Source: an uncultured delta proteobacterium (lineage in GTDB: Bacteria > Desulfobacterota > Binatia > UBA9968). Taken from it: a stretch of DNA of 64,000 bases. Position numbers and translations under genes: made by a program. The stretch lies in NCBI GenBank assembly GCA_963745035.1, contig CAVUVW010000025.1, positions 96,001 through 160,000 on the forward strand, in the 5' to 3' direction. This document shows positions 30,990 to 48,129 of the stretch, piece after piece. The first letter of the stretch is position 1; each line of letters starts with the position of its first letter. Under the pieces are notes generated by a model that ran no database searches, had not been told where the DNA came from, and was given only the letters and a program-made list of their open reading frames with translations.

Positions 30990-31101
30990 TCCGAAGAACC
31001 GCGACGCTGGTGTTAATCATCCTTAGCAGCGGCGCGGTGTTTTTGCCAGGATTTTAGCCGTACAGAGATGTCGTCCAGGTGAGCCAGACCTGGCCCCAAC
31101 C

Positions 31102-31138
31102 AAAAAAAACGGGGAACGGCATCTCACCGCTCCCCGTT
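31102..31138 (-). terminator. Rho-independent terminator after the porin gene
   Basis: AACGGGGAGCGG-UGAGAUG-CCGUUCCCCGUU followed by a U-run. Confidence 0.85.
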
Positions 31139-31158
31139 CGGACGAACAGTCAAAGCGC

Positions 31159-32380: not shown

Positions 32381-32460
32381 CGAGTGAACCTCCTCAAAGT
32401 TAGCTGAGATACTAAGCCGCATTGAGCGACACCGCAAACCCAAAAACCTCGATTTTACAC

Positions 32461-32476
32461 AGCAATAAAAATGCCA
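32461..32476 (-). promoter_or_regulatory. sigma54 promoter of the porin gene
   Basis: TGGCATTTTTATTGCT matches the TGGCAY-N5-TTGCW consensus. Confidence 0.8.
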
Positions 32477-32672
32477 TGAGACGACGATCCCTCGGCGCGT
32501 CGTAACAAGCTTGAAACTAAAAATTATTCTCTTCGAGCTCGGCGGCTAAAATATCGCTGTCGCCTAGAAGTTAATCATCCCTGTCTAATTTCTAGGCGCT
32601 CCGATGCCGCGCGACACTCCAGCGGCTTTTCCAGCTCGCATAAACCGGCACGGCTGTGAATTCGCGCCTCGG

Positions 32673-34883
32673 TCAATTGTCTTCGAGGGGAAAATCCCAG
32701 ATTTTGCGCACGCGCACGGCGCAGGCTTTGAGTTCCGGTTGGCGCGACAGCGGATCGCGCGCGGCGATCGTCAGATTGTTCGCGGCCTTAAAAAAGCCGC
32801 CGTCGCGCCCCCAATGAAACGGCAGAAAACACGTCCCGCTGACGATCTCCTCGGTGACCCGGCACTGCGCCACGACTTTGCCCCGGCGCGAAAAAATCTC
32901 GACGAAATCGGCGTCTTGGATGCCGTGCGCTCGGGCATCGCCGCGGTTGATCTCGAGGATCGGGTCGGGCGCGTACCTGCGCAGCGCGGGGTTTTTTCCC
33001 GTGCGGGTCATGGTGTGCCAGTGATATTTGGAGCGGCCGGTGGTCAGCCACAGCGGATACTCGGCATCCGGCGCTTCGACCGGCTCGGCATGCTCGACGG
33101 CGACAAAGCACGCTTTGCCGTCGGGCGTCGGGAACTTCATGTCCTCGTACAACCGCGCCGCGCCGGCCGCCCGGCCGCTCGGGCACGGCCACTGCAGCGG
33201 CCCTTCATTTTTCAGCCGGCGGTAATTGACGCCCGAGTAATCGCAAAAACTATTCGCCGTCAGCGCGGCAAACTCGTCGAAGATTTCCTCGGCGCCGGAG
33301 TAGTCGAACGCCGCGCCAACTCCCAGCGCCGTGGCGAAGAGCGCAATGATCTTCCAATCGGGCAAAGCCTTGCCAGGCGGCTCGACCAGCTTCGGCATGT
33401 AGGTGATGCGCCGCTCGGAGTTGGTCATCACGCCCTCTTTTTCGCTCCACTGCGCCGCCGGCAAGATCGCGTGCGCGAAGCGGCTGGTCGCGGTCGGATG
33501 GTAGGCGTCTTGAACGACCACCAATTCTGCTTGCCTGAGCGCCTTCTCGATGAGGTCGGTGTCCGGCACGGAAACCGCGGGATTGGTGCAGAGAATCCAG
33601 ATCGCCTTGAGTTTGCCTTGCGCGAGCGCTTCGAACTGTTCGAGCGCGGCAAGCCCCGGCTCCGGCGCGATGCTGCCGCGCGGCACACGCCAAAAGTGTT
33701 CAACCATTTCGCGGTCGCGCGCATCGGCCACGCTGCGGTAACCCGGCAGTAAGTGCGAGAGGCCGCCGACTTCCCGCCCGCCCATCGCATTGGGCTGGCC
33801 GGTGAGCGAAAACGGCCCCGAGCCGGGCTTGCCGATCTTGCCCGTGGCGAGGTGGAGATTGTGAATCGCGTTGTTCTTGCGCACGCCCACCGAGCTTTGA
33901 TTGATCCCCATGCTCCAGAGCGACAGCGCGCTTTTCGACATGGCGAAGATCAATGCCGCCTCGACGATCAGACATTCGGCGACGCCGCAGATCTCGGCGG
34001 CCCGGTGGGGCGGGTATTGCTTGACGGTTTCCTTGAGCTCGCGAAAGCCGCGGGTGTGGCCGGCGATGAACTCGCCATCGGTCAAGTTTTGCTCGATCAA
34101 GACCGCGAGCATGGCGTTCAGCAGCGCGATGTCGCTTCCCGGCCGGATCGGCAGATGTAGATCGGCGAAATCGGCGGTCTCCGTGCGCCGGGGGTCGACG
34201 GCAATGATGGTGACTTTCTTGGGCTCAGCCAGCTTGCGTTGCTTGATGCGCTTAAAAATCACCGGATGACAGTCGGCGGCATTGGTGCCGATCAGCAGGA
34301 AGCAATCGGCGCAATCGATGTCGGCGTACGATGCCGGCGGCCCGTCCGAGCCGAAAGAGACTTTGTAGCCGAAGGCCGCCGACGCCATGCACAGCCGCGA
34401 GTTGGTGTCGAAGTTGTTCGTGCCGAGAAACCCTTTGGCGAGCTTGTTGGCGACGTAATACTCCTCGGTCGTCAACTGCCCGGAGCCGTAAAACGCGACG
34501 GCTTCCGGACCATGCTCGTCGATGATGGCGCGAAAACGCCGGGCGAGATAGTTCATCGTTTGTCCCCAGCTCGCGCGCTTGAAGTCACCGTCCTGGCAGG
34601 CTCGTATGTGCGGATAGAGCAAGCGGTCGCTGGTTTTCAAAGTTTCCGGCAGATAGACCGCTTTGAGACAGAGATCGCCCCGGCTTGATGGATGATCCAG
34701 ATCACCCTTGATGCGCGTTACCGCGCCTGCTTGAACTTTCGCCAGAAGACCGCAGCCGACACCGCAATACGGGCAATATGACTTTTCCCAATGCGTGCTG
34801 ACGTTGCTTTCCACGAAATTTGGCTCGCCACTCGACCTGTTTAGGGAGCGATATCGAAAGAAGGTGGAGTTGCTTTGTGCCAA
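32673..34883 (-). CDS. narB: Assimilatory nitrate reductase, NarB-type molybdoenzyme (likely start GTG at 34814)
   Basis: 4Fe-4S motif CPYCGVGCG...LC, Mo ligand TNSRLCMAS, LTGQPNAMGGRE, QPELKACAV. No C-terminal BFD-like domain. Confidence 0.9.
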   Translation of the reverse strand: MAQSNSTFFRYRSLNRSSGEPNFVESNVSTHWEKSYCPYCGVGCGLLAKVQAGAVTRIKGDLDHPSSRGDLCLKAVYLPETLKTSDRLLYPHIRACQDGDFKRASWGQTMNYLARRFRAIIDEHGPEAVAFYGSGQLTTEEYYVANKLAKGFLGTNNFDTNSRLCMASAAFGYKVSFGSDGPPASYADIDCADCFLLIGTNAADCHPVIFKRIKQRKLAEPKKVTIIAVDPRRTETADFADLHLPIRPGSDIALLNAMLAVLIEQNLTDGEFIAGHTRGFRELKETVKQYPPHRAAEICGVAECLIVEAALIFAMSKSALSLWSMGINQSSVGVRKNNAIHNLHLATGKIGKPGSGPFSLTGQPNAMGGREVGGLSHLLPGYRSVADARDREMVEHFWRVPRGSIAPEPGLAALEQFEALAQGKLKAIWILCTNPAVSVPDTDLIEKALRQAELVVVQDAYHPTATSRFAHAILPAAQWSEKEGVMTNSERRITYMPKLVEPPGKALPDWKIIALFATALGVGAAFDYSGAEEIFDEFAALTANSFCDYSGVNYRRLKNEGPLQWPCPSGRAAGAARLYEDMKFPTPDGKACFVAVEHAEPVEAPDAEYPLWLTTGRSKYHWHTMTRTGKNPALRRYAPDPILEINRGDARAHGIQDADFVEIFSRRGKVVAQCRVTEEIVSGTCFLPFHWGRDGGFFKAANNLTIAARDPLSRQPELKACAVRVRKIWDFPLEDN

Positions 34884-35800
34884 TCATCGTCGAAGGTAAT
34901 TGGCGCCTGCGGCGCACGGTACTTGCGCCGGAAGCGATTGAAACCGGTGTATTTTTCGATGACGAACAATTCGTCTGGCGTTGCCGCCTGTCGCGCTACC
35001 GGGTCAACGCCCGGCGTCCGGCCGTGGCCGGCGCGCTCTTCGAGAAACGTGAGCAGGTGTCCACGCGCGGCCTGGTAGCGCGGAGCATCGACGATGCTCA
35101 GTCGCTCCCGCGGCCGGACGAAGGGAACCGTGACGATTTCCCCGACGGTCGCCGCCGGCCCGTTGGTCATGAGCACGATGCGGTCGGCCAGCAGCAGCGC
35201 CTCATCGACGTCGTGGGTGACCATGAGTACGGTTTTGCGCTCGCTTTCCCACAACCGCATCAGCTCGTCCTGCAACTCCATGCGCGTGATGACGTCGAGC
35301 AAGCTAAACGGCTCGTCGAGGAGCAGCACTTTGGGCTCCAGAGCGAAGGCTCGGGCGATGCCGACCCGCTGTCGCATGCCCGCGGAGAGTTCTTCCGGGT
35401 AGCAGTTCGCGATGTCGTTGAGGCCCACCAAGGCGAGGTACTTGTCGGCGATTTCGCTGCGGTTCCTTCGGCTCGATCTTTCATTGACTTGCTCAACCGC
35501 AAGCAGCACGTTTTCTCTGGCGGTCAACCACGGCAGCAATGCCGGCGACTGAAACACCACGCCGCGATCGAGCCCGGGACCGACAACTTCCTTGCCCGCG
35601 ATGATCACACCGCCTTCGCTCGCTTCGTTCAGGCCCATGGTGATCGACAGCACGGTAGACTTGCCGCAGCCCGAATGGCCGATGATGCAGACAAACTCTC
35701 CTTCGGTCACCCGCAAGTTGAAATCCTTGACGATCACCGAGCGCCCCTGCTCGGTATCGTAGCTCTTGCCCAACTGAGTGAGTTCGAGAAATGGCATCAT
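34841..35800 (-). CDS. nrtD: Nitrate ABC transporter ATP-binding subunit
   Basis: Motifs IGHSGCGKST, LSAGMRQRVG, LLDEPF, MMTNGP-like LMTNGPAA. Confidence 0.88.
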   Translation of the reverse strand: MMPFLELTQLGKSYDTEQGRSVIVKDFNLRVTEGEFVCIIGHSGCGKSTVLSITMGLNEASEGGVIIAGKEVVGPGLDRGVVFQSPALLPWLTARENVLLAVEQVNERSSRRNRSEIADKYLALVGLNDIANCYPEELSAGMRQRVGIARAFALEPKVLLLDEPFSLLDVITRMELQDELMRLWESERKTVLMVTHDVDEALLLADRIVLMTNGPAATVGEIVTVPFVRPRERLSIVDAPRYQAARGHLLTFLEERAGHGRTPGVDPVARQAATPDELFVIEKYTGFNRFRRKYRAPQAPITFDDDWHKATPPSFDIAP

Positions 35801-36657
35801 TGCGAAATTCCTTCCAGCGCTAATTGAGTTGCGCGCTTGCGCCGGGCAGGTCTTTGGTTCGAACCTTTTTGTCCCGCGACGAGAATGCCCACAGTCTCGC
35901 GCCGCGCCTTTTGATAATCCGCGCCGCGGCCAACTTCGGCGCGCGAGCGCGGGTGCGGCGTCGCGATGCGCACCGGCGGTCCGAGGGTCGCGCCAGGACT
36001 CGAAGTCAGCGTGTAAATCGTATCGGCAAGCAAGATCGCCTCATCGATATCGTTGGTGATCATCACCACCGTCTTTTGGGTTTCCATCCAGATGCGCGCC
36101 AGCTCTTCCTGCAACGTACCGCGGGTCAGCGCGTCGAGGGCGCTGAATGGTTCGTCCATCAGCAGCACCTTAGGGTCCATCGCCAGGCCGCGGGCCACCG
36201 CCACTCGCTGGCGCATGCCGCCGGAAAGCTCGCGCGGCCGCTTGCCGGAGGCGTTGCTGAGATTCACCAGCTTGATGTAATGCTCCGTGCGCTCACGTTT
36301 GTCTTTTTCCGCCAGATGCGGCGCCACCGCATCGACGGCGAGATGGATGTTTTCGTAGACCGTCATCCAGGGCAGCAGTGAATAGTTTTGAAAAACGATG
36401 CCGCGCTCCGGGCCCGGACCTTGAATCGCTTTGCCTTCGAGCAAGATCTCGCCGTGATCCGGTTCCATCAAACCGGCGATCAGCGAGATCAAAGTCGTCT
36501 TGCCGGCGCCGGAGCGGCCGACGATACAAACGAACTCCCGTTCTTCGATGGCGAGGTTGATGTCGCGCAGCACGGGCAGCACGTTCGCCGATTGGGCTTT
36601 GCCTCTGCCGTGGAATCCCTTGCTCACGCCGCAAATTTCCAGAAAAGCCATGCGCAT
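35797..36657 (-). CDS. nrtC: Nitrate ABC transporter ATP-binding subunit without a C-terminal regulatory domain
   Basis: Motifs GRSGAGKTT, FQNYSLLPW, LSGGMRQR, MITNDIDEA. Confidence 0.85.
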   Translation of the reverse strand: MRMAFLEICGVSKGFHGRGKAQSANVLPVLRDINLAIEEREFVCIVGRSGAGKTTLISLIAGLMEPDHGEILLEGKAIQGPGPERGIVFQNYSLLPWMTVYENIHLAVDAVAPHLAEKDKRERTEHYIKLVNLSNASGKRPRELSGGMRQRVAVARGLAMDPKVLLMDEPFSALDALTRGTLQEELARIWMETQKTVVMITNDIDEAILLADTIYTLTSSPGATLGPPVRIATPHPRSRAEVGRGADYQKARRETVGILVAGQKGSNQRPARRKRATQLALEGISQ

Positions 36658-36660
36658 TCC

Positions 36661-37434
36661 TCAGGCGGTTTTGAACCGGCGCTCGACCACGCCCATTAAC
36701 CGGTCCAGCGCGAAGCCGATCAGGCCAATGGTGATGATCGACAAGAGAATGTGCGAATAGACCAGGCTGTTGTATTCCTGCCAGAGAAAACCGCCGACGC
36801 CAGGAGCACCGGTGAGCATTTCCGAAGCGACGATGACCAGCCACGCCAAACCGAGGGACAGACGATAGCCGGTAAACACATAAGGCAGCGATCCCGGAAT
36901 GATGATGCGCCGCAAGGTTTTCAGCCAGGAGAGTTTGAGCACCCGCCCAACGTTCAGATATTCCGGGTTGATGCTGCGTACGCCTACGGCCGTGTTGATC
37001 ACGGTCGGCCACATGGCACAAAGCGCGATCGTGAAGATCGCCGCGGGCTCCGACTGCCGGAAGATAACCAAGCCCAGCGGCAGCCAGGCCAAGGGCGAGA
37101 TCGGCCGCAGGATTTGGATCACTGGATCGAACGATTTGTAAAAGAACGTCGACAATCCCAGGAGAAAGCCGATGGGCGTGCCAATCGCAATCGCCAGCAA
37201 GAAGCCCTTGGCGACGCGCATGAGACTCAGAAACGCGAAACGTCCGATGCCCTGGTTCATTTCGCCGTCTTTGAAAAACGGGTTGAGGATATACTGCTTG
37301 CTCTCTTCCCAGGTTTTCAGCGGCGACGGCAGATCCAGCGCCACGGTTGTGCTGATCATTGTCCAGAGGAGCAGCGTAAAGCCGATCCCTAGGAAAGGAA
37401 GAAACAGAGTAGCGAGATCGAGTCGTTTGGCCAT
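36661..37434 (-). CDS. nrtB: Nitrate ABC transporter permease
   Basis: Motifs LRPISPLAWLP, WPTVINTAVG, AWLVIVASEML. Confidence 0.92.
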   Translation of the reverse strand: MAKRLDLATLFLPFLGIGFTLLLWTMISTTVALDLPSPLKTWEESKQYILNPFFKDGEMNQGIGRFAFLSLMRVAKGFLLAIAIGTPIGFLLGLSTFFYKSFDPVIQILRPISPLAWLPLGLVIFRQSEPAAIFTIALCAMWPTVINTAVGVRSINPEYLNVGRVLKLSWLKTLRRIIIPGSLPYVFTGYRLSLGLAWLVIVASEMLTGAPGVGGFLWQEYNSLVYSHILLSIITIGLIGFALDRLMGVVERRFKTA

Positions 37435-37445
37435 GTTTTGTCCTT

Positions 37446-38729
37446 TCAGACGAGATTATGGACGGCGAATTTTTTCGCGTACTCTTCCGGCTTGGCCGGG
37501 TCGAACTCGATGCCGTCGAAGAGCGTCTCTCTCTTCATGTCTTCCTTGGGTACCGAGATGCTCATCTCCTTCGCGACCTCGCGAAAGATGTCCGGACGAT
37601 GAACTTTGTCGACAACCCCCTTGTAATCGGGCGCTCCCTTCACCATGCCCCAACGGCGGAACTGCGACAGCCACCAAACGCCGTGAGACTTTAGCGGAAA
37701 ATTGGTGTTGCGCACGAAGAACGTCATGTAGTTGGGATCCTTTTCTTTGCGTCCATCGCCGTAGTCATAGTCGCCGAGCATGCGGCCGAGAATGATTTCC
37801 TTTTGCGTGTTGATGTACTGCGGCTTCGACACTACCTCGGCCATGTGCGCGCGGTTTTCCAGCTTATCGATGTGCTGGCTCGATTCGAGCATCGCGCGTA
37901 GGATCGCTTTGACCGTCTTGGGATTCTTGTCGGCGAACTCCTCGGTGAACGCGAGAACCTTTTCCGGATGGTCTTTCCACAACTGCTGTGTGGTGATCGC
38001 GGTGAAGCCGATGCCGTCGGCGATCGCCCGGGCGTTCCATGGCTCGCCGACGCAGAACCCGTCCATCTTGCCCACCTTCATGTTCGCGACCATCTGCGCC
38101 GGCGGTATGGTGATGAGCGTCACGTCCTTGTCCGGATTGATGCCGCCGGAGCCGAGCCAATAGCGCATCCACATGGCGTGAGTTCCGGGAGGGAAAGTCA
38201 TGGCGAAAGTCATCGGGCTGCCCGCCTTCTTGGCTTGCTCGGCCAACGGCTTGATCGCCTGCGGCGTCTTGGCGCCCTTGGCCAGCAACTCTTTGTCCAA
38301 CGTGATCGCCTGCCCGTTGCGATTGAGATAAAAGGGAATGATCATCGGTTTTTGCGGCGAGCCGAGCAGTCCCATAGTCGACGCGTAAGGCATGCCGATG
38401 AGCATATGCGTCGCCTGATTTTCTCCCAACGTGAGCCGGTCGCGAATGACGGCCCAGGACGCTTCCTTCGAAATGGTCGACTCGATGCCGTATTTCTTGA
38501 ACAGGCCGAGCTCGTGCGCCATGACGATGGAAGAGCAATCCGTAAGCGCGATGATGCCGAAGCGAACTTTGGTCGTCTCCGGCGCATCCGCGGCGTACAC
38601 ACCGCCCACCCATCCCTTCGGCATGCCGACGAGGAAGGCGCCCACCGCACCCCCGGAGATCTTGAGAAAATTCCGCCGGTTTATTTTTCCAGTTTTGACG
38701 AATTGGTTTTTTCTAGCCACGATCCTCAT
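37446..38729 (-). CDS. nrtA: CmpA/NrtA-family substrate-binding protein with Tat signal
   Basis: Twin-arginine motif NRRNFLK. Motifs IALTDC, NRNGQAIT, FAMTFPPGTH, FCVGEPWN, WKDHPEK. Confidence 0.92.
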   Translation of the reverse strand: MRIVARKNQFVKTGKINRRNFLKISGGAVGAFLVGMPKGWVGGVYAADAPETTKVRFGIIALTDCSSIVMAHELGLFKKYGIESTISKEASWAVIRDRLTLGENQATHMLIGMPYASTMGLLGSPQKPMIIPFYLNRNGQAITLDKELLAKGAKTPQAIKPLAEQAKKAGSPMTFAMTFPPGTHAMWMRYWLGSGGINPDKDVTLITIPPAQMVANMKVGKMDGFCVGEPWNARAIADGIGFTAITTQQLWKDHPEKVLAFTEEFADKNPKTVKAILRAMLESSQHIDKLENRAHMAEVVSKPQYINTQKEIILGRMLGDYDYGDGRKEKDPNYMTFFVRNTNFPLKSHGVWWLSQFRRWGMVKGAPDYKGVVDKVHRPDIFREVAKEMSISVPKEDMKRETLFDGIEFDPAKPEEYAKKFAVHNLV

Positions 38730-40583
38730 CCCTCCACCGTAACTTGTTCACCCTGCGCCACCAGCCGAAAGACTTTCACCTTCAAGCTCGGATCCGTCGA
38801 ACAAGCGCCGGTTTTCAAGTCGAATTTATAGCCGTGCAGCGGACAGACGACCTCGCCGCCCTCGATCCAGCCCTTGCACAATTGGCCCCCTTCGTGCGGG
38901 CAAATGTTTTGAATGCCGTAGAGTTTTCCGTCGTTTTTGAAGACCGCCATCTCTTCTCCTTTCACGCGCACCAGTTTCGCCGCGCCTTCGGCGATCTCAT
39001 CGCCGCGAAACGATGTCTTTGCCGCTTTGGTATCCGCAGGAGGTGGCTGCGTACCCAGCGCGGGTGGCTGGGAAATTTTGCGCAACTGTTGTCGCATCGC
39101 TTTGAAAGCGCCGTGCTTCGCCAGCCCGGCGATGGCGTCGGGCAAGTCCTCACACGGCACGTCTTCGAGAATCTTGATTGGAAAGTTGGCTTCGATGCCC
39201 GCGGCGCCGGCGGCGAAGACGTCCACCGCTTCGACCACTTCGCCGTTGATCTTGACGTTCTTTCCGAGGAGACCGATGTCCGAAACGGTGTGGTTGCCGC
39301 AGCTCGCCGGGCAGCCCGACCAGTGCATGCGCAGCGGCTGGGTCTTGCCGAGTTTGGCTTCCAGATGGCGCGCAGTCTTGAGCGCCCATCCCTTGGTGTC
39401 GATCAAGGCGAAATGGCAGTAATCCATCCCCGTGCAGCTCACCAGACCGCGCATGACCTCCGAGGGATCGTAGCGCAGCTCCTCAAGCACGGGCTCTTCC
39501 GTGAGCGCGCCGATCCTGGAATCCGGCACGTTCGGAATAATGATGTTCTGGCCGACCGTGAGCCGAAGCTGGCCACTGCCGTAGTTTTCTGCCAAGTCTG
39601 CGATGCGCAGCATCTGCTCCGAGGTTATGCGTCCGACCGGCACGGCGAGACCGACGTAGTTGAGTCCCTGCTGCTTCTGGCGCAACACCCCGACGTGATC
39701 GGTGTGCTTCTGCGCGCGTTCATCCTTTCCCGCTGCTGTGAGCGGGCGGTCGACGCGGCGCTCCAATTCGGCGCGAAACTTTTCGATACCCCAGTTCTCG
39801 ATCAAGAACGCCAAACGCGCCTTGGTGCGCAGCTCGCGGCGCGCCGTGGTCGCGAAAGATCATGACGATGTGGCTGCACAGCACAGCGGCCTCCTCCGGC
39901 GTCACGAAGAGGTTGAGCGGTGAGGCCATGCGAAAGCCGCCCGAGCCGAGCTTGCCGCCCACCGCGATGTTGAACCCGCACAGCTCGATCCCGCTGATTT
40001 CCTTGGTCGCAGGCGTCAAAGCCAGATCCTGCGACTCCGCGTGGGTGCAAACCTCTTTGCACGCGGTGATCGTGACGTTGAACTTGCGCGGCAGATTGGT
40101 GAACGCTTTGTTGCCGACGAAGATTTGCGTGAACTCGCGCACCACGCCCGAGGCGTCGAACAGCTCGTTGGGCGTGAGACCGGCGACGGGGCAGCCGATC
40201 ACGCCGCGGATATTATCCATGCCGGTCTGCAGCGAGATCAGCTCGACAGCCGCGAGCCGCTCCCAGATTTCCGGCACGTCGGCAATCGTGAACCAGCGCA
40301 GTTGAATCTGCTGGCGGGTGGTGATGTCGGCGAAGCCCTTGCCGTATTGGCCGCTGATTTGCCCGATGGCGCGGAGCTGCGTCGCGCTCAGGATGCCGTT
40401 GGGAATGCGCAGGCGCATCATGAAATGGCCGGGGGTTTGCCGCCGGAAAAACACGCCGGCCCACTTGAGGCGCTCCTTGTCGCCTTCGGTGATCGCCTGC
40501 CATCCCTCGGCCGCGTACCGCGGCACATCGCCGAGGATTTCCAGCCCATCCTTTTCTTTTTTGTATTCTTCGATCTTATTCAT
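38726..40583 (-). CDS. nirA: Ferredoxin-type nitrite reductase fused to a C-terminal Rieske domain; frameshift near 39830
   Basis: Motifs MNKIEEYK, FMMRLRIPNG, ITTRQQIQL, NLPRKFN. Siroheme/4Fe-4S ligands CTGMDYC and GCPASC. In-frame Rieske motifs CPH and CPLH. Confidence 0.9.
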
Positions 40584-40832
40584 GATCTCGCGAGCGCCGG
40601 TTCAAACCACAATGCGTTCGACATACGATGGCTATTTCCATAGCGGCCAGGATTTGCTGCGGAGCCGGCCGGCGCGGTTTGGCCTGGAAACTTCCAGATC
40701 GAAGCAGCGCGCCATCTCCAGCACGGGCAGCTTGGGGATGTCCCGATCGGCCTGATCGCCGAACACTTCCGCCAGGAAAAGAATGTTCTCGAAAATCTTT
40801 CCGCTTGTTCTTTTTGCCCGCGCTTTTGCCAT
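40576..40832 (-). CDS. Small hypothetical protein heading the nir operon (66 aa as read; about 85 aa if frameshifted)
   Basis: SD AAGGAG lies 7 nt before the ATG at 40832. An alternative frame (QQILAAMEIAIVCRTHC...DHE*) ends overlapping the nirA start. Confidence 0.55.
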
Positions 40833-40846
40833 TTACGGCTCCTTGC

Positions 40847-40918
40847 AAAAATAAAAAGGCGCTCCATCGGATAACCGATGAGCGCCTTTGCTCAGCGAAT
40901 GCGTCGTCGCGTTCGCTG
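40847..40918 (-). promoter_or_regulatory. ANTAR-binding dual-hairpin leader overlapping an intrinsic terminator
   Basis: Hairpin 1 is CAGCGAA-C-GC[GACGAC]GC-A-UUCGCUG. Hairpin 2 is GAGC[AAAGGC]GCUC. Terminator is AAAGGCGCUCAUCGG/CCGAUGGAGCGCCUUU followed by UUAUUUUU. Confidence 0.85.
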
Positions 40919-40927
40919 TTATGAATG

Positions 40928-40943
40928 AGCAATCGTTATGCCA
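40928..40943 (-). promoter_or_regulatory. sigma54 promoter of the nir operon
   Basis: TGGCATAACGATTGCT. Predicted +1 (about 40917) falls at the base of hairpin 1. Confidence 0.85.
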
Positions 40944-41046
40944 TGGACAAATGGAAATAAACCGACGTGATTCTGCCCTTTCGCGCCTGCGGCGTATCTC
41001 ACTGCCTGCGGCGAAGTCAGGCGCTGCTTAGATAAGCGGCAGTCAC

Positions 41047-41634
41047 TCAATTTTTGTCTCCCTTCATAAATCCACCGGCCAAGATAATTGCCTGGGCGAC
41101 TTCAACCATCGGTTTGCGCATATTCATGCTGGCTTTCTTGATCAAGGTGTACGCTTGATCTTCCGACAGATGGCGCTGCTGCATGATCAATCCCTTGGCG
41201 CGCTCGATGACTTTTCGCGCTTCCAAGGTTTCTTTCAGACTGGAGTTTTCCGCGCGCAGCGCGAGGAAATCCTGAAAACGTATGATCGCCAGCTCGACCG
41301 CAGGGCTGAGCTGTTCGGCCCTCAGCGGCTTGACGAGATAACCCATCACTCCGGCGCGTTTGGCGCGCTCGACCGTCGCCTCGTCACAGTGGCTGGTGAT
41401 GAGAACGATCGGCACGGGATGCGACCGCATGACGTCGTGAGAAGCTTCGATGCCGTCAACGTCGGACAGTCCCACGGCCATTAAAATAACGTCGGGAACC
41501 GCCCTGCGCGCCAGCGCCAGCGCAGTTTTGCCGCTTGCGCCCTCGCCCGCGATCTCGTATCCGCCGCTATTTAGGATCGAAAAAAGATGCCGGCGCGAGG
41601 GTGGATGATCATCTATGACCACGACCCTTCTCAT
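41047..41634 (-). CDS. REC-ANTAR antiterminator (NasT/AmiR-like) with a pseudo-receiver domain
   Basis: ANTAR motif RKVIERAKGLIM...AYTLIKKASMN. The receiver has VIDD and YLVKP but reads PDVILMA at the phospho-Asp position. Confidence 0.88.
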   Translation of the reverse strand: MRRVVVIDDHPPSRRHLFSILNSGGYEIAGEGASGKTALALARRAVPDVILMAVGLSDVDGIEASHDVMRSHPVPIVLITSHCDEATVERAKRAGVMGYLVKPLRAEQLSPAVELAIIRFQDFLALRAENSSLKETLEARKVIERAKGLIMQQRHLSEDQAYTLIKKASMNMRKPMVEVAQAIILAGGFMKGDKN

Positions 41635-42377
41635 GGGTCCGCTTGGCCTCCGTCTCCCTTGCGGTTACGCGACCGGCAGTTGCGTCGAACAAATTCTGAG
41701 AGGAATCTCTCGCCGTAGTATTTCAAATTGGGCGCATAGCTCTGCGTGTCGGCGATGATCTTGTCGGGAAGCACGTAGGGAGCCGCGGCTAGATCCTTGG
41801 AGCGCTCGTTGATCCACCGCTCAATCATGCGCGGCGTCACTTCGAGGTGGAACTGCAAGCCGTAGATGCTCTTGCCGACGCGAAAAGCCTGGGTGCTGTA
41901 GTGCGCCGAAGAAGCCAGACGAATTGCGCCGGCCGGCAAATCGAAGCCATCGGCGTGCCATTGGAACACGGTGGCGTTTTCCGGCAGATAGCCGAGCAGC
42001 GAGTCCATCTGCCCGTGCGGCGTGATGGATATCGGACTCCAGCCGATTTCCCTGACCGCGCCGTGAAAAACTTGTGTTCCAAGAGCCTCAGCCAGGAGAT
42101 GCGCGCCGAAACAAACGCCGAGGATCGGCACCGCTTCGTCGATCGCCGCGCGAATGATGCGTTTTTCCCAGCGCAGAAATGGAAAGTCGGCTTCGTCATC
42201 CACGCTCATGGAGCCGCCGAGAACGATTACGGCACTGACATTTTCCAATTCCCCCGCCGGCAACTCGCCGTGGAACAAGCGAAAAATTCGAAAATCCGTT
42301 CCTTGCTTTTCCAGTACCTCGGCGAAAAAGCCGAGATCCTCGAGCGGATCGTGCTGAAAAACCAGGACCTCTGACAT
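41631..42377 (-). CDS. Class I glutamine amidotransferase-like protein
   Basis: Motifs VLGGSM, ILGVCFGA (Cys), FQWH, LQFHLE (His-x-Glu). Stop overlaps the ANTAR gene start (ATGA). Confidence 0.9.
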   Translation of the reverse strand: MSEVLVFQHDPLEDLGFFAEVLEKQGTDFRIFRLFHGELPAGELENVSAVIVLGGSMSVDDEADFPFLRWEKRIIRAAIDEAVPILGVCFGAHLLAEALGTQVFHGAVREIGWSPISITPHGQMDSLLGYLPENATVFQWHADGFDLPAGAIRLASSAHYSTQAFRVGKSIYGLQFHLEVTPRMIERWINERSKDLAAAPYVLPDKIIADTQSYAPNLKYYGERFLSEFVRRNCRSRNRKGDGGQADP

Positions 42378-42395
42378 GGATCGTGCCGAGTAATA

Positions 42396-42462
42396 AGTGC
42401 TGAGGACTGAGGTTGCGTCGCAATTTCTCACCTCAGCCCTTTACCGCTCAGTCCTCAGTCCT
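42396..42462. repeat. Inverted heptamer (CTCAGTC)n intergenic repeat, related to the one at 22383
   Basis: Arms AGTGCTGAGGACTGAG and CTCAGTCCTCAGTCCT. Confidence 0.6.
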
Positions 42463-42491
42463 ACTTCTCCGCTGCTTGTACCTTGCGCAAT

Positions 42492-42526
42492 GGCGGTGCT
42501 GCGGTGGAGGTCACCGCAGCACCGCC
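42492..42526. other. Perfect 15-bp GC-rich stem-loop after amtB with no U-tract
   Basis: GGCGGTGCTGCGGTG-GAGGT-CACCGCAGCACCGCC. Confidence 0.75.
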
Positions 42527-42554
42527 CAGGAGACCACGCGGCTCAACCGAAATA

Positions 42555-44148
42555 TTAGACAGTTCCCTTGGAAAGCTCCGCCGCGCCGTAAGGCGCGGTT
42601 GATCCCGCCATTTTCCCCGATGGGTCAACCAGAGCGGAACCGCGCGCGGCCACCGTCACGAAATCAGGATAGGCGACGTTGCCGTGCTCGCCGATATCGA
42701 GGCCTTCGATCTCTTCGTCCGCCGGCACGCGGATGCCGACGGTCGCCGCGATGATTTTCCAGAAAATCAGCGATACGGTGAAGACAAATGCGCCTACACC
42801 CACGACGCCGACAAGCTGCTTCATCAGCAGCGCCGCGCCGCCGCCGAAGAACAAACCGTTGCCGGTGGTGTTGGGCGTGAAATGATCCTGCGCGAACAAT
42901 CCCACGCACAACGTGCCGAAGATACCGCAGACCAGGTGCACCGAAGTGGCGCCGACCGGATCGTCGATCTTGATCTTGTCGAAAAACAGCACCGAGACAA
43001 CAACCAAAAATCCGGCGATCAAGCCGATGATGAGCGAGCTGGGAATGCTTACGAAGGCGCAGCCGGCGGTGATCGCGACAAGCCCCGCCAGAGCGCCGTT
43101 GAGAATCATGCTGAGATCAGGCTTGCCCAAGAGCAACCATGCGGTGAGCGAAGCGGAAATGGCTGCCGCCGCTCCGGCGGTGTTGGTCGCCACGGCGATG
43201 CGTCCGATAGCGCCGGCATCCGCAGCCATGGTGCTGCCTGGATTGAAACCAAACCAGCCGAACCAGAGAACGAACACACCGAGAGTCGCCAAAGCCATGC
43301 TGTGGCCGGGAAGCGGCAAGGCTTTACCATCTTTGCTGTACTTGCCGATGCGCGGGCCGAGCACGATAATGCCCGCCAACGCGGCCCAGCCGCCCACCGA
43401 ATGCACCACCGTCGAACCGGCGAAGTCGAACATGCCGAGCTTGGCCACCCAACCACCGCCCCAGATCCAGTGGCCGGTGATCGGATAGATGATGCCGACC
43501 ATCAAAAAGGTGAAAATGTAGAAGGAGCCGAATTTGATGCGCTCGGCGACGGCGCCGGAGACGATGGTCGCCGCCGTGCCGGCGAAAACCAGCTGGAAGA
43601 AAAACTTCGTCCACAGCGGCACGCCCGTCCAGTTAAGCGCGGAGTACACTCCCTTGTAGGCATCGCCCATGGCGGGACTATTGTCGGCTCCGCCGACAAA
43701 CCAAAGCCCCTGAGTTCCCATGAACGCATTGCCGTCGCCGAACATCAGTCCCCAGCCGAGCGCCAAAAAAGCCAGAGAAGAAGCCGCGAAGACGATAAAG
43801 TTCTTGGCCAAAATTGTGACGGCGTTTTTCGCTCGACAAAGGCCGGACTCGACCGTCGCGAAGCCTAGGTTCATGAAGAAGACCAACATGCCCGCGATCA
43901 AGCGTCCACATGGTGTCCATCGCTACCTTGGCGCCGCCGATCTGCTCCAATAGTCCTTGTGTGAACTGCGCCGGCGCCGCACCCGGATCTTCTTTCTTCG
44001 CTTCAGCCGCCGGCGCTGCGGCGGGCGCTTCCACTTTGGACGGCTCACTCGGCGGCGGCTCCTGCGCGCGCGCAACGCTCGTGACGAGGAATATTCCCAA
44101 CAAGGCCGTCAACGACGCGAACGCTAAATATTTCTTTGCCTGCTTCAT
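42555..44148 (-). CDS. amtB: Ammonium transporter; frameshift near 43905
   Basis: Motifs FAGTAATIVSGAVAER, DFAGSTVVH, WFGFNPGS, DDPVGATSVH (twin His). The signal/N-terminal part lies in ORF 43678-44148. Confidence 0.95.
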
Positions 44149-44183
44149 TGTTTTCTCCCTCCTCGGAGTTTTGAGCTGATTTC

Positions 44184-44636
<453 letters not shown>

Positions 44637-44835
44637 CTAGTCGGTGAATTCTTTACAGATTCTTTACGATGGTGACGAGGCGGGCTTTGCGGAACTTCAT
44701 AGAGGCTGCTCAGAAATTAAGCCTGCCGCCTAAATTTCATGCAGCACGAAATGGATCAGGACGGTGTTGTGCGATCTAAACGTTAAGGTAGCAGTAAGGC
44801 GCTACTGTGTCACGACTGGGTGAGAAGCTTTTTGC

Positions 44836-44867
44836 GGGGCACGGCGCCCGGCGGGACGCCGTGCCCC
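44836..44867. repeat. REP-like palindrome
   Basis: GGGGCACGGCG...CGCCGTGCCCC forms an 11-bp stem. Single copy in the window. Confidence 0.5.
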
Positions 44868-44919
44868 TATCCCGACGTCCTGCACAGGAGGCACACACTG
44901 AACAGGGAATCCGAATCGA

Positions 44920-45105
44920 TTAGAGCTCGTCTTTATGGTTTCGCGCGAGTGCCTCGATTTGATCGGCAACTTCACGAAGCTCGCGCGCCAAACCTTGGAA
45001 CCCGTCGCTGATCACTTCCGTCGATGCCGTCGTATAGTGCACATGTACTAACGATTCGGGTCCAAGACTGACTTCCCACTTTTTTCCTGAATGGCTGTCA
45101 TCCAT
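44920..45105 (-). CDS. Hypothetical protein (61 aa)
   Basis: SD-like GAAGGA upstream and an amphipathic C-terminal helix. No family recognised. Confidence 0.4.
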   Translation of the reverse strand: MDDSHSGKKWEVSLGPESLVHVHYTTASTEVISDGFQGLARELREVADQIEALARNHKDEL

Positions 45106-45312
45106 TGTTTCGTTCCTTCACTGGCGCATTTTCGAATCAAATCGGCCCTCTCCACATGTTTGGCGGCGGACTCGGTCACCGATTTAAAACCGATAGCAAT
45201 GTCTCTCGATCAGTGGTGATCGACAAAAGTAGCTGGCTGTCTGAAGACCTGAAAAGGCGGAGATGGCTGGCTGTAAAATTTTTCTTCCAACGCTTCGACT
45301 GACGCGCGAATG

Positions 45313-45603
45313 TTATTGGTCCTCCGTTACCTTTGCCGGCAGAGGAACCGCGCTCGACTCGCAGGCCTTGATCTGCCAGCGGACCGCACGCCCGCAGTAT
45401 TCCTGCGCGATCGCCGATTCCATACTCGGGTCGTAGCGGAGCGCAAGAATCAGATAGTGCAGCGCAATCGCCATGGCGATCTTTTCACCCGGCGTCTTCG
45501 CGTGCTTCTCTTCGAGCCAAATGGTCGCCGTATGAATCGTCTCCACCGGGAAACGCTCCGTATGTCGATATAAATCCCAAGCTTTCTTTACTAGAAGATC
45601 CAT
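45313..45603 (-). CDS. Hypothetical protein (96 aa)
   Basis: Starts 4 nt after the upstream ORF stop, with protein-like composition. Confidence 0.45.
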   Translation of the reverse strand: MDLLVKKAWDLYRHTERFPVETIHTATIWLEEKHAKTPGEKIAMAIALHYLILALRYDPSMESAIAQEYCGRAVRWQIKACESSAVPLPAKVTEDQ

Positions 45604-45626
45604 CGCTCACCTGCCGATCTGCGGAA

Positions 45627-46302
45627 TCATTTCTCGTTCCAGCGGAGGCCGTCCTGTTGCACGAACGACAGCGACGAAATATGCCGCGTGCGATTGAATT
45701 TTTCGCTGCCGTTGCCGCCGGGCTTTTCTTCGAAGTGGGTGACCTCCAACACGTACCGCCCCGCCCATGGGGTCGGCAGCGTCACCTGACCCTTGGCATC
45801 GGTGGTCAACGGTTTCTGCCATTTGGCGGGTCCGACGATGGTCACTTCGGCTTTTGACAGCGGCGCGCCGAGAAAGAAAAGCGTCATCGTATTGCCGTTG
45901 GCAGCGGTGGGTACCAACTCCAAGTCGAGCTTCGCTGCGGTCTCGCGTTCGGCCCGCTTTGGCGTAATAGATGGTTTTCGTTGCGCCGCCTTTCTCTTTG
46001 TCCTCGCGCGCCGGCATGCTGCTCTCGACCAGGCGCACATCGCCGCTCCCTTTGAGTTGAATCTCCAGATGATTTTCGTTCCTTTTGATCGGCAGCGGCT
46101 CGCCGCCGGCGAGGAAGACGCGCGGTGCTTTGATGCGATCGAGCATTCCCCCGCTTTTTTCGCGGATGTCATCGATCCACTCTCCGAGGTACGCGCGCGC
46201 CGGTCCGTCGCCGTCGCGCTCGAGCCAGACGTAGTGAGCGCGCGCCTGAGTACTCATCAAAGAGGCGGCAAACAAAATGAGCAGCGTAAACCACTTCGCC
46301 AT
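45627..46302 (-). CDS. Periplasmic DUF4198-like protein; frameshift near 45955
   Basis: Signal ending ARA-H, HYVWLE, YYAK, then LELVP...TDAKGQVTLPTPWAGRYVLE. Confidence 0.7.
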
Positions 46303-46321
46303 GAGCGTTCCTCCTGCGAAT

Positions 46322-48129
46322 TTAGGCCGTCAAGGCAGCGCGCTCTTGCTGCTGCAGTGTTGCGGCCACGCCGTCGAACCAATGCTTGGACGGCACGTCG
46401 TATTCAGCGTCGCAATCAACCCGCGGGTAAAGTCGAATGCCGCCGTGCCGTTCCAACGCCGCGTCGAGATCTCGGCCGCACTTGCAGAACTGATCGTAAG
46501 TCGTGTTGCCGAGCGCGAGCACGGAAAACTTGACGCCACGCAGATCGAGACCATTGCCGCGCACCACTGCTTCCCAAAAGGGCGCGGCATCATCGGGCGG
46601 CTCGCCGTCGCCATAAGTGCTCATGATGAACAGCACGCAGCTTGCTTGGCTCAGGACATCGGGCTGACAATGCGCCATGTCGCGCACACGCGCGACTATG
46701 CCTTGGCCGCGCAGTTTTGCGGCGAGCCGGTTTGCCAACCGCTCGGCGTTGCCGGTCACCGTGCCGTAGAGAATCAGCGGCGCATCGTCGTTGAACGGCG
46801 CGCTCCAGTCAGTGCGAGCCTCTTCGTGTCCGTTCTGGGCATGTCCGTTGGTGAAGCTGGTTGCTTGTTCCATGGCGGCGGTCGTGAGCTCCTTTGCTGT
46901 CTCAGAAATTTGCGGCACGGCTGATGAAGGAATGGACTGAATTTCGACAGGTGCGGTTTCGTAAGGAACGGTGGGCGCATCTTCGGCATCGCGTTTTCGG
47001 TAGCGGAAGCGCCGCCATGCCATCGCCACGCCGGTCCATACCAGGAAGCAGCCACCGAGCGACGCTAGACCGGCGACGGTCTGACCGATAAACCCGAGCG
47101 CTTCACCGGTGTGAAGGCCGCGCACCCAGACGCGGAGTTTGCGGCCGGTGCTGGCGGCGGCGTAGGGTTCCCACTTCACGATTTCGGCACTGGCTTGATT
47201 CAGCGTGAGCTGCGAGCGCGCGAAGATGTGCGGCGCGCTCGGTTCCTGGATCAAGACATTGATTGGCCCGTCGCCGCCTGGCGGCAGGCGCAGCATCATC
47301 ATGACCCAACCCGGAGCTTGCTGCTCGGCGCGGGCGAGAAAGGCATCGAAGCTTGCCAGCGGTTTGCGCTCGCGCGCCTCGCCTTCGCCGCGCCGCTGCT
47401 GCGCTTGAGCCATAGGACCACTCGCCGCTCTGCGGCGGCGGCTCGCTGCCGGTCAACGTATAAAGGAGATCGTTGGCCCACGGATAAGACATGACCGCAG
47501 CGGTGAGGGTCAGCACCACCAGCACGCCGGATGACCAGAAACCGATAACGTTGTGCCAATTCCAATCGCGTGCTTTGCCGCGCAGGCGAGGATTGAAAAG
47601 GAGGCTGGATTTCAATCCTCGCCAGTGCCAACTGCGCGGCCACCAGAGATAAACTCCGGTGATGGCAAGCCAAAAGAAAGCAAGATTGCAGGCACCGGTG
47701 ATGGCGCGCCCGGTGGCGCGCCCTTCGCCTTCCATGCCGAGCCAGCGGTGCCAATCGATCACGTCGTGAAACCAGTCGTGCAGCTTAGAGCCCTTGCCCA
47801 GGACTGCGCCGCTATAGGGGTTGACGTAGATCGCACCCTCGCGGCCGAAGCCGACGGCGACGGCGGCTGTCGGCTCGTTGCGCAGGACTACGCCCGTGGG
47901 GCGGGCATTCGGGATTTTGCGCGCGGGCGGCGGCTACGATTTGATCCAGGCTCAGCTTCGCCGCGCCGGCCGGCGGCACCACTTCACGCACGTCACGCTC
48001 GGCGTACTCGACCATTTGGTGCTCGTACATGAGAATCACGCCGGTGGCCGACATGAGGAAAATCACCGCCCCGGCGACCACGCCAGCGATCAGATGAGAC
48101 CAGAAAAGGATTTTATGCAGCAGCTTCAT
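46322..48129 (-). CDS. PepSY-associated TM protein (PiuB-like) fused to a flavodoxin domain; frameshifts near 47900 and 47420
   Basis: His-bearing TM motifs FWSHL, DWHRWL, NWHNVIG, GLHTG. Flavodoxin motifs LYGTVTGNAE, STYGDGEPP, ALGNTTYDQFC are in frame with the last TM helix. Confidence 0.8.

Follow-up and report, generated by a model that had tools for sequence, protein, structure and literature searches.

A glutamine amidotransferase–ANTAR gene pair and a putative antitermination leader at a nitrate-assimilation locus of a Candidatus Binatia genome

The window analyzed here is a 64,000-nucleotide stretch of contig CAVUVW010000025.1 from a Candidatus Binatia metagenome-assembled genome (GCA_963745035.1; 7.43 Mb in 28 contigs, 92.6% complete, 5.8% contamination). 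It contains a nitrogen gene cluster in which a stand-alone class I glutamine amidotransferase (GATase) gene overlaps the start of a gene for a receiver (REC)-ANTAR regulator. On the minus strand, the order of transcription is glnK, amtB, a 177-nucleotide (nt) spacer, the GATase gene, the REC-ANTAR gene, a 463-nt region, nirA, nrtABCD, a nitrate reductase gene, and the gene of a beta-barrel porin (Table 1). An earlier reading of the sequence alone (the original prediction) had placed the GATase downstream of glnK-amtB and had tied the regulator to the nitrate operon; both statements hold, with glnK and amtB upstream on the same strand and the ANTAR gene preceding a terminator-bearing leader. 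It had further proposed that the receiver, which has Ala at its phospho-acceptor position, is gated by the GATase-fold protein, and this part of the proposal is weighed below.

The ANTAR regulator and its receiver site

The regulator is 195 amino acids (aa) long and contains a Pfam Response_reg domain (residues 4–113, 77 bits, cut-off 30.2) followed by an ANTAR domain (residues 133–184, 75.5 bits, cut-off 27.3), so that both domains of a REC-ANTAR protein (PF00072 and PF03861) score above their curated cut-offs. It is the product of the only ANTAR gene in the window genome. HMMER alignments place Ala53, within the stretch PDVILMAVGL, opposite the phospho-acceptor Asp of Rv1626 (1s8n), 6wsh, a CheY, and VraR, confirming the predicted substitution; the regulator thus lacks the Asp at the end of beta3 that characterizes canonical phosphorylated REC-ANTAR proteins. 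The remaining receiver residues, D8, D9, T80, and K102, are kept, and a further Asp (D58) is found at +5 in the window sequence and in most of the Ala-type rows printed. The closest solved structures are Rv1626 (1s8n, a "putative antiterminator"; E 1.6e-38) and 6wsh (E 4e-37), which we take to be PdtaR and EutV, respectively. Both matches span REC, the linker helix, and ANTAR, and both proteins retain the phospho-acceptor Asp. AmiR is absent among the 47 solved sequences that match the regulator at E ≤ 1e-8, and the regulator appears closer to PdtaR/EutV/GnfR-type receivers than to AmiR.

The original prediction had allowed that the Ala might be a sequencing error. It is instead a character of a clade, being shared by the clade as a whole, and its codon (41476–41478) lies inside 41443–41593, where a contig from an independent RNA-library run matches the window identically. 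All 23 orthologues found among 60 relatives of the same order (50–79% identity) have Ala at this position. In a search of 1.84 billion representatives at 50% identity, 137 of the best 150 matches were aligned, those longer than 420 aa being left out; with the query counted, Ala was present in 18 of 138 sequences, within the signature "[ML]A[VI]GLxDxDG", and Asp in 109, within "[ML]D[VI]KMP". A survey of the 80 best loci from a scan of one genome per species gave 39 Ala, 38 Asp, and 3 Ser, the last in the Ala-clade regulators of L097, L099, and L101 (LMSVGL). The Ala/Ser type occurs in records labelled Binatia, Methylomirabilota/NC10, Rokubacteria, and some "Deltaproteobacteria". The comparisons with sequencing runs used Logan contigs, which cannot show transcript ends, read-through, or levels, and the RNA-library contigs over parts of the ANTAR and GATase genes are no proof of transcription.

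The cluster contains no histidine kinase gene, as originally stated: none of the 68 HATPase_c matches of the genome falls on the window's contig, and no kinase was linked in any of the loci examined. The genome search for nasS that had been proposed revealed no NasS-grade paralogue of NrtA. The only NrtA-grade NMT1_2 protein is the NrtA of the cluster itself, which carries a Tat signal (317.7–319.5 bits; next match, 85 bits). The claim that no NasS/AmiC-type sensor is present therefore stands for the genome as assembled, the absence of NasS being unproven at 92.6% completeness. A search for the NIT domain gave no match in the genome, a result of little weight given that the control genomes had no match either. 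The NMT1_2 family of substrate-binding proteins is itself unusually expanded in this genome, with more than 150 matches.

Leader of the nitrate-assimilation operon

In the region between the ANTAR gene and nirA, a sigma54-type promoter match is followed by two hairpins (P1 and P2) and an intrinsic terminator, whose 5′ arm overlaps P2. Targets of ANTAR proteins are built of two hexaloop hairpins, the second of which competes with a terminator. The window copy of P1 has one C-A mismatch. The terminator was found by eye and by alignment, its stem and loop lying outside the limits of a simple scan, which missed it. Across 15 Binatia leaders, 91.6% of the alignment cells of P1 and P2 are paired, compared with 28–49% when the pattern is slid, with four compensatory pairs; the corresponding values for the terminator are 94.8% and 28–53%, with three compensatory pairs. 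In this small sample of related leaders, the pairing pattern lends the hairpins modest support.

The main text of Ueki & Lovley 2010 (PMC2995071) describes a motif, CAGGCAANGGCGCC, that binds GnfR and lies upstream of, and overlaps, the leader terminators of Geobacter nitrogen genes. P2 carries the core of this site, and GAGCAAAGGCGCTC in the window overlaps the terminator stem, as would be expected of a GnfR-type RNA site. The full motif is present in one relative (CAGGCAAAGGCGCC, L031), and two others have GGCAAAGGCGCC (L056 and L057). The core motif occurs 143 times in the whole genome, against about 57 occurrences expected from base composition; only 2 of the 143 are followed by a terminator-like structure, one being the nirA leader and the other lying on contig C16. 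Because P2 combines the core of the published site with terminator overlap, we interpret the regulator as an antiterminator of GnfR type, with no evident target here other than the nitrate-assimilation operon; this assignment draws on domain architecture and the RNA motif and not on comparison with the GnfR protein sequence.

Three exact sigma54-type matches are present in the window, before glnK, before the nirA leader, and before the porin gene, all of them upstream of nitrogen-related genes. Upstream of the nirA match, at about 40990–41035 on the minus strand, is a repeat of the form TAAGCAG ... GCAGGCAG, which in relatives reads CTCTAGGCAG-N16-TAGGCA and is possibly the site of an enhancer-binding activator. 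An Rfam scan of positions 30000–47000 returned only a sub-threshold small-RNA match (26.4 bits, gathering score 70); neither the leader nor the amtB-GATase spacer matched a glutamine riboswitch or another known element. Eight of the 80 loci have a copy, 52–77% identical, of the 66-aa open reading frame (ORF) that lies between the terminator and nirA; the copies are located equivalently, although in some cases the gene that follows is a porin gene and not nirA.

The GATase and its adjacency to ANTAR genes

The GATase is a 248-aa class I protein (PF00117, 62 bits) that matches NCBIfam PRK07053 at 207 bits, below the cut-off of 250. A match to PF07722 (Peptidase C26) is limited to residues 69–104 (23.5 bits, cut-off 20.5), and NCBI labels some of its homologues as belonging to the "gamma-glutamyl-gamma-aminobutyrate hydrolase family". 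The intact Cys-His-Glu triad of the original prediction was verified: C89 sits in a GxCxG nucleophile elbow and H177 and E179 in an HxE motif, which align with those of TM1158 and 9xfs, and the three residues are invariant in 39/39 ANTAR-adjacent homologues. Matches to TM1158 (1o1y), 9xfs, 3m3p, and 3l7n extend over nearly the full length (E 4.8e-36 to 3.5e-20). No synthase partner is fused to the 248-aa protein and none is evident among its neighbours, where no dedicated search was made. Residue 93 (42097–42099, minus strand) is His in the window GATase vs. Gln in at least 35 of the 39 homologues (GVCFGAHLL vs. GVCLGAQLL); the Gln of the CxGxQ stretch after the catalytic Cys is important for glutamine binding. 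A second GATase paralogue, on contig C14, has as neighbours Fpg-type glycosylase, transporter, SPFH/NfeD-like, and nitroreductase-like genes (named by reading translations), and no link to nitrogen genes was seen around it.

The stop codon of the GATase gene (TGA, 41633–41631) and the start codon of the ANTAR gene (ATG, 41634–41632) share the sequence ATGA, the overlap noted in the original prediction. The survey of adjacency that it had called for was positive, with GATase before ANTAR in Binatia and ANTAR before GATase in a distant class. Among the 60 Binatia relatives, which are not independent samples, 19 have both genes, 4 only the ANTAR gene, 4 only the orthologous GATase gene, and 33 neither. 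The GATase gene is directly upstream of the ANTAR gene in 18 of the 23 regulator-bearing relatives. The five misses comprise one locus with 214 nt upstream, one with glnA in that place (G035), two with an unrelated gene (G037 and G055), and one in which a frameshifted ANTAR gene lies away from the GATase gene (G008).

The ATGA overlap recurs in 18 of 19 loci, including the window; the nineteenth is an in-frame fusion. In this genome (G029; locus L051, 9296–10624, minus strand), the GATase and ANTAR frames run into each other where the overlap normally lies and encode a single 442-aa protein. We do not use the fusion as Rosetta-stone evidence: it occurs on one contig only, its 90% cluster has separate proteins of 248 and 194 aa, and it may be an assembly indel or a very recent event. 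Among longer proteins, none of 33 matches carries ANTAR or GATase domains, which is weak evidence against fused GATase-REC-ANTAR forms.

In the four GATase-only genomes (G005, G013, G023, and G033; 93–100% complete), the GATase gene follows amtB and is itself followed by a porin gene, a uroporphyrin-methyltransferase-like gene (named from its translation), or no recognized gene. No ANTAR domain was found anywhere in these four genomes, nor any match to nirA. The GATase thus remains linked to amtB/glnA, and the presence of the regulator follows that of its target operon. The porin family that follows narB in the window also follows amtB-GATase in genomes without the nitrate cluster. Two of the genomes used are unpublished, G035 (Ala orthologue, glnA-ANTAR arrangement) and G005 (GATase only), and neither conclusion depends on them.

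Among the 80 best loci, the order GATase-ANTAR is found in 11 Ala-type loci, all Binatia-like (including L110, with an over-long ORF call). The other 31 Ala/Ser-type loci have no adjacent GATase; six of them have less than 400 nt upstream, leaving 25 informative loci, which come from Methylomirabilota, Rokubacteria, and some Binatia. Of these, 20 could be assigned: directly upstream of the regulator are glnA, amtB, glnK, or a porin gene (16/25) or its own sigma54-type match (4/25). In six Ala-type loci without GATase (L098, L103, L111, L112, L031, and L035), the regulator is followed by an NrtA-like protein 33–35% identical to the window NrtA. Those of L031 and L035 have an N-terminal extension of about 60 residues before the Tat signal and are followed by nrtB- and nrtD-like genes; they may belong to a different transporter, possibly with a different substrate, under the same control.

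The Asp-type loci, from records labelled Deltaproteobacteria or Thermodesulfobacteriota (the delta class; five such genomes measure 2.0–3.0 Mb), have the opposite order. The GATase gene is immediately downstream of the ANTAR gene in 30 of 38 loci, with gaps of −4 to 217 nt; in one further locus (L123), an over-long GATase ORF call overlaps the ANTAR gene, and 4 of the 8 misses are located at contig ends. A sigma54-type match precedes the ANTAR gene in 27 of the 30, and in 22 of the 30 the GATase gene is followed by a second match and a GnfR motif, which stand before porin, amtB, and glnK genes. This placement suggests that the delta-class GATase is co-expressed with the regulator and does not lie behind the terminator. 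For four Asp-type loci examined closely, the translation of the upstream gene resembles a glycogen synthase, and no kinase gene is adjacent.

Starting from the GATase, 88 of 96 delta-class genomes have the gene, mostly in one copy. Among the 30 best loci, 28 have an ANTAR gene immediately upstream in the same orientation, and a by-eye comparison of coordinates for the other 58 genomes found 42 in which the two genes share contig and strand at a distance of up to about 360 nt. A linked ANTAR-GATase pair is therefore present in about 70 of the 88, the by-eye part not being script-checked. Most delta-class genomes have a second REC-ANTAR paralogue, approximately 40–45% identical, on another contig than the GATase. 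In a maximum-likelihood tree with a midpoint root, the delta-class GATases group with the second, unlinked Binatia paralogue and not with the ANTAR-linked Binatia group (support 95/80). With the two adjacent GATase groups on different branches of the family, the Binatia and delta-class adjacencies may have arisen separately, by recruitment twice.

Gene pairs that persist across phyla in either order, with tight spacing and with transcription alongside the regulator and not behind its terminator, often encode proteins that act together. The adjacency gives real support for a functional link, more than the original prediction could draw on, and this link would be independent of the Ala, since Asp-type regulators show the pairing most strongly. 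Each partner can do without the other: GATase genes persist in genomes that have no ANTAR protein, and most Ala-type regulators have no GATase neighbour. The predicted pairing of GATase and ANTAR accordingly survives as conserved adjacency. The reading of the GATase as a dedicated sensor is weakened by GATase genes without ANTAR and by Ala/Ser loci without GATase. The argument that led to it, namely that a receiver with Ala needs a partner and that the upstream gene is this partner, fails, since sibling Ala/Ser loci have glnA, amtB, glnK, or porin genes mostly in the upstream slot and Asp-type regulators show the pairing at least as strongly (30/38).

The remaining genes of the cluster are given in Table 1. 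Those for nrtB, nrtC, and nrtD were named by reading translations, and the order nrtABCD is kept in relatives. The C-terminal part of the nitrite reductase (38726–39814, minus strand) contains a Rieske [2Fe-2S] domain (Pfam Rieske, 65 bits) and looks like a NirA-NirD-like fusion. Downstream of narB, the BBP2/OmpL-like porin gene (31159–32443, minus strand) is apparently split into 274 and 156 aa, compared with about 401 aa in relatives. The amtB gene has an apparent 1-nt insertion near 43902; at 43902/43903, contigs of X6 and X18, two independent sequencing runs, are shorter by one base. Similarly, nirA has an extra base at 39841 that one X6 contig lacks. Once the extra bases are removed, the frames close to 530 aa (amtB) and 618 aa (nirA). 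Given the independent contigs and the closure of both frames, the splits are most likely assembly errors and not pseudogenes; scattered frame breaks are also present in relatives. The positions with frame problems in the window are 39841, 43902/43903, and also 44156. The GATase and ANTAR genes are untouched by such errors, an X6 contig covering 41114–42126 with one differing letter and no gap.

Table 1. Genes and sequence features of the cluster, listed in order of transcription
Feature	Position	Strand	Basis or remark
sigma54-type −24/−12 promoter match TGGCACCGCCGTTGCT before glnK	44592–44607	−	exact match to TGGCAYN5TTGCW
glnK (PII)	44184–44522	−	Pfam P-II, 116.9 bits
amtB, two frames in window	42555–44148	−	Pfam Ammonium_transp, 397 bits
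amtB-GATase spacer with two strong hairpins, no sigma54-type match	42378–42554	−	direct sequence reading
Class I GATase-like protein, PRK07053/TM1158 type, Cys89-His177-Glu179	41631–42377	−	
REC-ANTAR putative antiterminator, GnfR type, Ala53	41047–41634	−	
sigma54-type promoter match TGGCATAACGATTGCT, nitrate-assimilation operon	40928–40943	−	exact match; same place in Binatia relatives
Leader hairpin P1: 6-bp stem, hexaloop GACGAC, G at loop position 4	40897–40914	−	alignment of leaders
Leader hairpin P2: GAGC-AAAGGC-GCTC, GnfR-type motif core GCAAAGGCGC	40880–40893	−	overlaps 5′ arm of terminator
Intrinsic terminator GGCGCTCATCGG-TTAT-CCGATGGAGCGCC, then T-run	40847–40886	−	sequence and alignment
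Conserved 66-aa ORF with strong Shine-Dalgarno sequence	40632–40832	−	no Pfam family
nirA, ferredoxin-nitrite reductase, two frames in window	38726–40583	−	Pfam NIR_SIR_ferr, NIR_SIR, Rieske
nrtA (Tat signal), nrtB, nrtC, nrtD, nitrate ABC transporter	34841–38729	−	nrtA: Pfam NMT1_2 and TAT_signal
narB/nasA-type assimilatory nitrate reductase	32673–34883	−	named by translation reading; position conserved in relatives
sigma54-type promoter match before porin gene	32461–32476		exact match

Proposed mechanism, alternatives, and known systems

We read the locus, with moderate confidence, as a sigma54-driven feed-forward cascade with a phosphorylation-independent antiterminator, the best of the readings considered. 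The GATase and ANTAR genes would form the tail of a nitrogen-limitation unit, glnK-amtB-GATase-ANTAR in the window and glnK-amtB-(glnK)-glnA-GATase-ANTAR in most relatives. Under nitrogen limitation, an NtrC-type activator would fire the sigma54 promoters before glnK and before the nitrate operon. The antiterminator, made as the last cistron and translationally coupled to the GATase, would bind the hexaloop hairpins P1 and P2; with P2 sharing bases with the terminator stem, the terminator would be blocked and RNA polymerase would read into nirA. Its activity would be independent of phosphorylation, since Ala replaces the phospho-Asp throughout the clade, and would most likely be set by the amount of protein made. 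Such control would make for a feed-forward cascade one step beyond that of Geobacter with its sensorless kinase GnfK: the Ala clade would have dropped the kinase step and appended the regulator to the nitrogen-limitation operon. The GATase would be a catalytically competent enzyme of the nitrogen regulon that hydrolyses glutamine or gamma-glutamyl compounds, with a function that is also independent of the regulator. The surveyed Ala/Ser-type loci are consistent with this cascade, in that the regulator genes stand last after glnA, amtB, glnK, porin, or GATase genes, or behind a sigma54-type match of their own.

No sigma54-type match is found between amtB and the GATase gene in the window, and the GATase-ANTAR pair is probably reached by read-through from the upstream unit. 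Most Binatia relatives have glnA as an additional gene after amtB, with a hairpin, in some cases followed by a T-run, at the glnA-GATase junction.

Several points weigh against the cascade. With no promoter match and strong hairpins in the spacer, co-transcription of GATase-ANTAR with glnK-amtB is an assumption. The window contains five sigma54-type matches at one mismatch or fewer, a number that 29 of 100 shuffles reach and that is not above chance, so the argument from sigma54 rests on placement and on recurrence in relatives. Expression and RNA binding are read from sequence patterns. The constraint on D8, D9, T80, and K102 is odd for a chemically dead site, where a ligand or partner could act, and D58 at +5 could in principle be an alternative acceptor. 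Control by expression alone would yield no signal specific to nitrate or nitrite, unlike NasR, which governs nitrate assimilation by ANTAR antitermination, and unlike NasS-NasT. Finally, the tight and widely conserved coupling to the GATase exceeds what the expression model needs.

This last point bears on a generalized form of the mechanism of the original prediction, in which the GATase-fold protein would sense glutamine or a gamma-glutamyl compound and bind or modify the GnfR-type REC-ANTAR protein, gating antitermination by the glutamine pool in a logic analogous to that of AmiC-AmiR and NasS-NasT. We regard such a partnership as possible but doubtful. It would account for a pair that is conserved in two distant lineages in opposite gene order: in Binatia, with GATase before ANTAR in 18/23 relatives and the overlap in 18/19 loci, and in the delta class, with 30/38 Asp-type loci and about 70/88 genomes when the GATase is the starting point. 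The delta-class pair also seems to form a unit of its own in which GATase and regulator are co-expressed, and the two GATase branches adjacent to ANTAR, possibly a double recruitment, point the same way. The partnership is harder to reconcile with the four Binatia genomes that keep an amtB-linked GATase without any ANTAR domain, with the 25 informative Ala/Ser-type loci that have no GATase beside the regulator, and with the 16 of 58 delta genomes in which the by-eye comparison did not show a linked pair, at least 8 of which list only the 43–45% identical ANTAR paralogue on another contig. The distribution of the pairing does not follow that of the Ala substitution, the triad is invariant (39/39), as expected of an enzyme under selection, and the G029 fusion stands alone, with the longer proteins giving no fused forms (weak evidence). 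Predictions of a GATase-ANTAR complex from paired 39-row alignments, in two runs without controls, scored 0.00 and speak neither for nor against binding.

We consider it improbable that the pseudo-receiver is controlled by direct binding of GlnK (PII) or glutamine synthetase, with the GATase a mere neighbour. PII proteins and feedback-inhibited glutamine synthetase bind regulators in other bacteria, genes of one or the other candidate border the Ala-type regulator in every lineage, and the window unit begins with glnK. Among the 25 informative Ala/Ser loci, glnA, amtB, glnK, or a porin gene is the immediate upstream neighbour of the ANTAR gene in 16, and 4 more have their own sigma54-type match instead; adjacency to glnK, amtB, and glnA is, however, equally explained by shared sigma54/NtrC control. 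Very unlikely, in our judgement, is phosphorylation of the receiver, or binding of a phospho-donor or ligand, at a non-canonical site such as the +5 Asp in GL-x-D-x-DG via an unlinked kinase: D8, D9, T80, and K102 are retained across the Ala clade, an Asp stands five residues past the Ala in the window and in most of the Ala-type rows printed, and 68 HATPase_c matches lie elsewhere in the genome, but no kinase is linked in the loci examined and we know of no precedent for such phosphorylation in this family.

Three aspects of the locus and its relatives are absent from the literature searched. The first is a large GnfR-like clade, from Binatia, Methylomirabilota/NC10, and Rokubacteria, that has Ala or rarely Ser in place of the phospho-Asp and keeps the rest of the pocket. 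Secondly, this Ala clade would control nitrate assimilation in abundant uncultured soil bacteria without a recognizable nitrate sensor. Thirdly, the GnfR-type regulators of two distant lineages almost always share an operon with a class I GATase of the stand-alone kind. The search gave no prior account of an ANTAR-GATase pairing or of an Ala-type receiver in these regulators; a search linking ANTAR, glutamine amidotransferase, and nitrate assimilation returned only cyanobacterial genome papers, judged irrelevant from their titles, and other searches led only to the literature on NasS-NasT and GnfR.

The pairing offers a hypothesis of function for a widespread family of "orphan" GATases with several solved, unexplained structures, and it bears on how GnfR-type regulators sense nitrogen status. 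Tentatively, the PRK07053/TM1158-type GATase could be a glutamine-responsive co-regulator of GnfR-family antiterminators, acting on the receiver when glutamine is plentiful and switching antitermination off. It would then shut down antitermination of nirA-nrt-narB in Binatia and of porin-amtB-glnK in the delta class, and would supply the signal input that is missing both from the sensorless GnfK and from a Binatia and Methylomirabilota branch without phosphorylation, constituting a new type of enzyme-fold sensor for RNA-binding regulators. If the GATase is only an enzyme, the locus is an ordinary nitrogen-regulon operon with an unusual pseudo-receiver.

ANTAR antitermination is known for nitrate assimilation (NasS-NasT, PMC3795266) and for nitrogen fixation (GnfK-GnfR, PMC2995071). 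The GnfK/GnfR system of Geobacter sulfurreducens is the closest in several respects. According to the main text of PMC2995071, GnfR is likewise a REC-ANTAR regulator of nitrogen genes, and its targets include a hypothetical-protein-glnK-amtB operon, resembling the delta loci described here. The GnfR site CAGGCAANGGCGCC overlaps a leader terminator, the position that the core GCAAAGGCGC takes in the window. Targets and regulator stand behind RpoN (−24/−12) promoters in Geobacter; the window has pattern matches, none of them directly before GATase-ANTAR. The same text describes GnfK as a kinase without a sensor domain, in a cascade thought to be driven by expression from a master sigma54 system, and states that GnfR requires phosphorylation by GnfK to bind RNA. 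The window regulator differs in having no acceptor Asp and no HATPase_c match on its contig, which leaves the parts for phosphotransfer missing there, and in its target, which is nitrate assimilation and not nif. The word "amidotransferase" does not occur in the main text of that paper, its supplements not being covered. For TM1158 and the other stand-alone GATases (9xfs, 3m3p, and 3l7n), which have the nucleophile elbow and HxE motif in common with the window protein, the depositors' names give no function and no ANTAR partner is described in the sources consulted.

NasS-NasT of Paracoccus denitrificans and Azotobacter likewise places a REC-ANTAR antiterminator on the leader of a nitrate-assimilation operon and, as a further likeness, is regulated by protein-protein contact and not by a kinase, as given in the cited part of PMC3795266. 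The window has the corresponding layout in sequence, with a terminator-bearing leader between the ANTAR gene and nirA, and "response regulator NasT" is the name given by the Joint Genome Institute (JGI) to many close homologues of the regulator. Unlike NasS-NasT, neither the cluster nor the genome shows a cytoplasmic NrtA-like NasS or a recognizable nitrate/nitrite sensor, and the upstream slot is occupied by the GATase. In AmiC-AmiR of Pseudomonas aeruginosa, as described in the cited parts of PMC3795266 and PMC2995071, the ANTAR antiterminator has a receiver-like domain that is not phosphorylated, and the product of a neighbouring gene, a ligand-binding protein, holds it. The two systems are nevertheless distinct: AmiR lacks the conserved residues of receivers in general, whereas in the window regulator only the Asp is replaced, and AmiC has a periplasmic-binding-protein fold, whereas the gene upstream here encodes a class I GATase.

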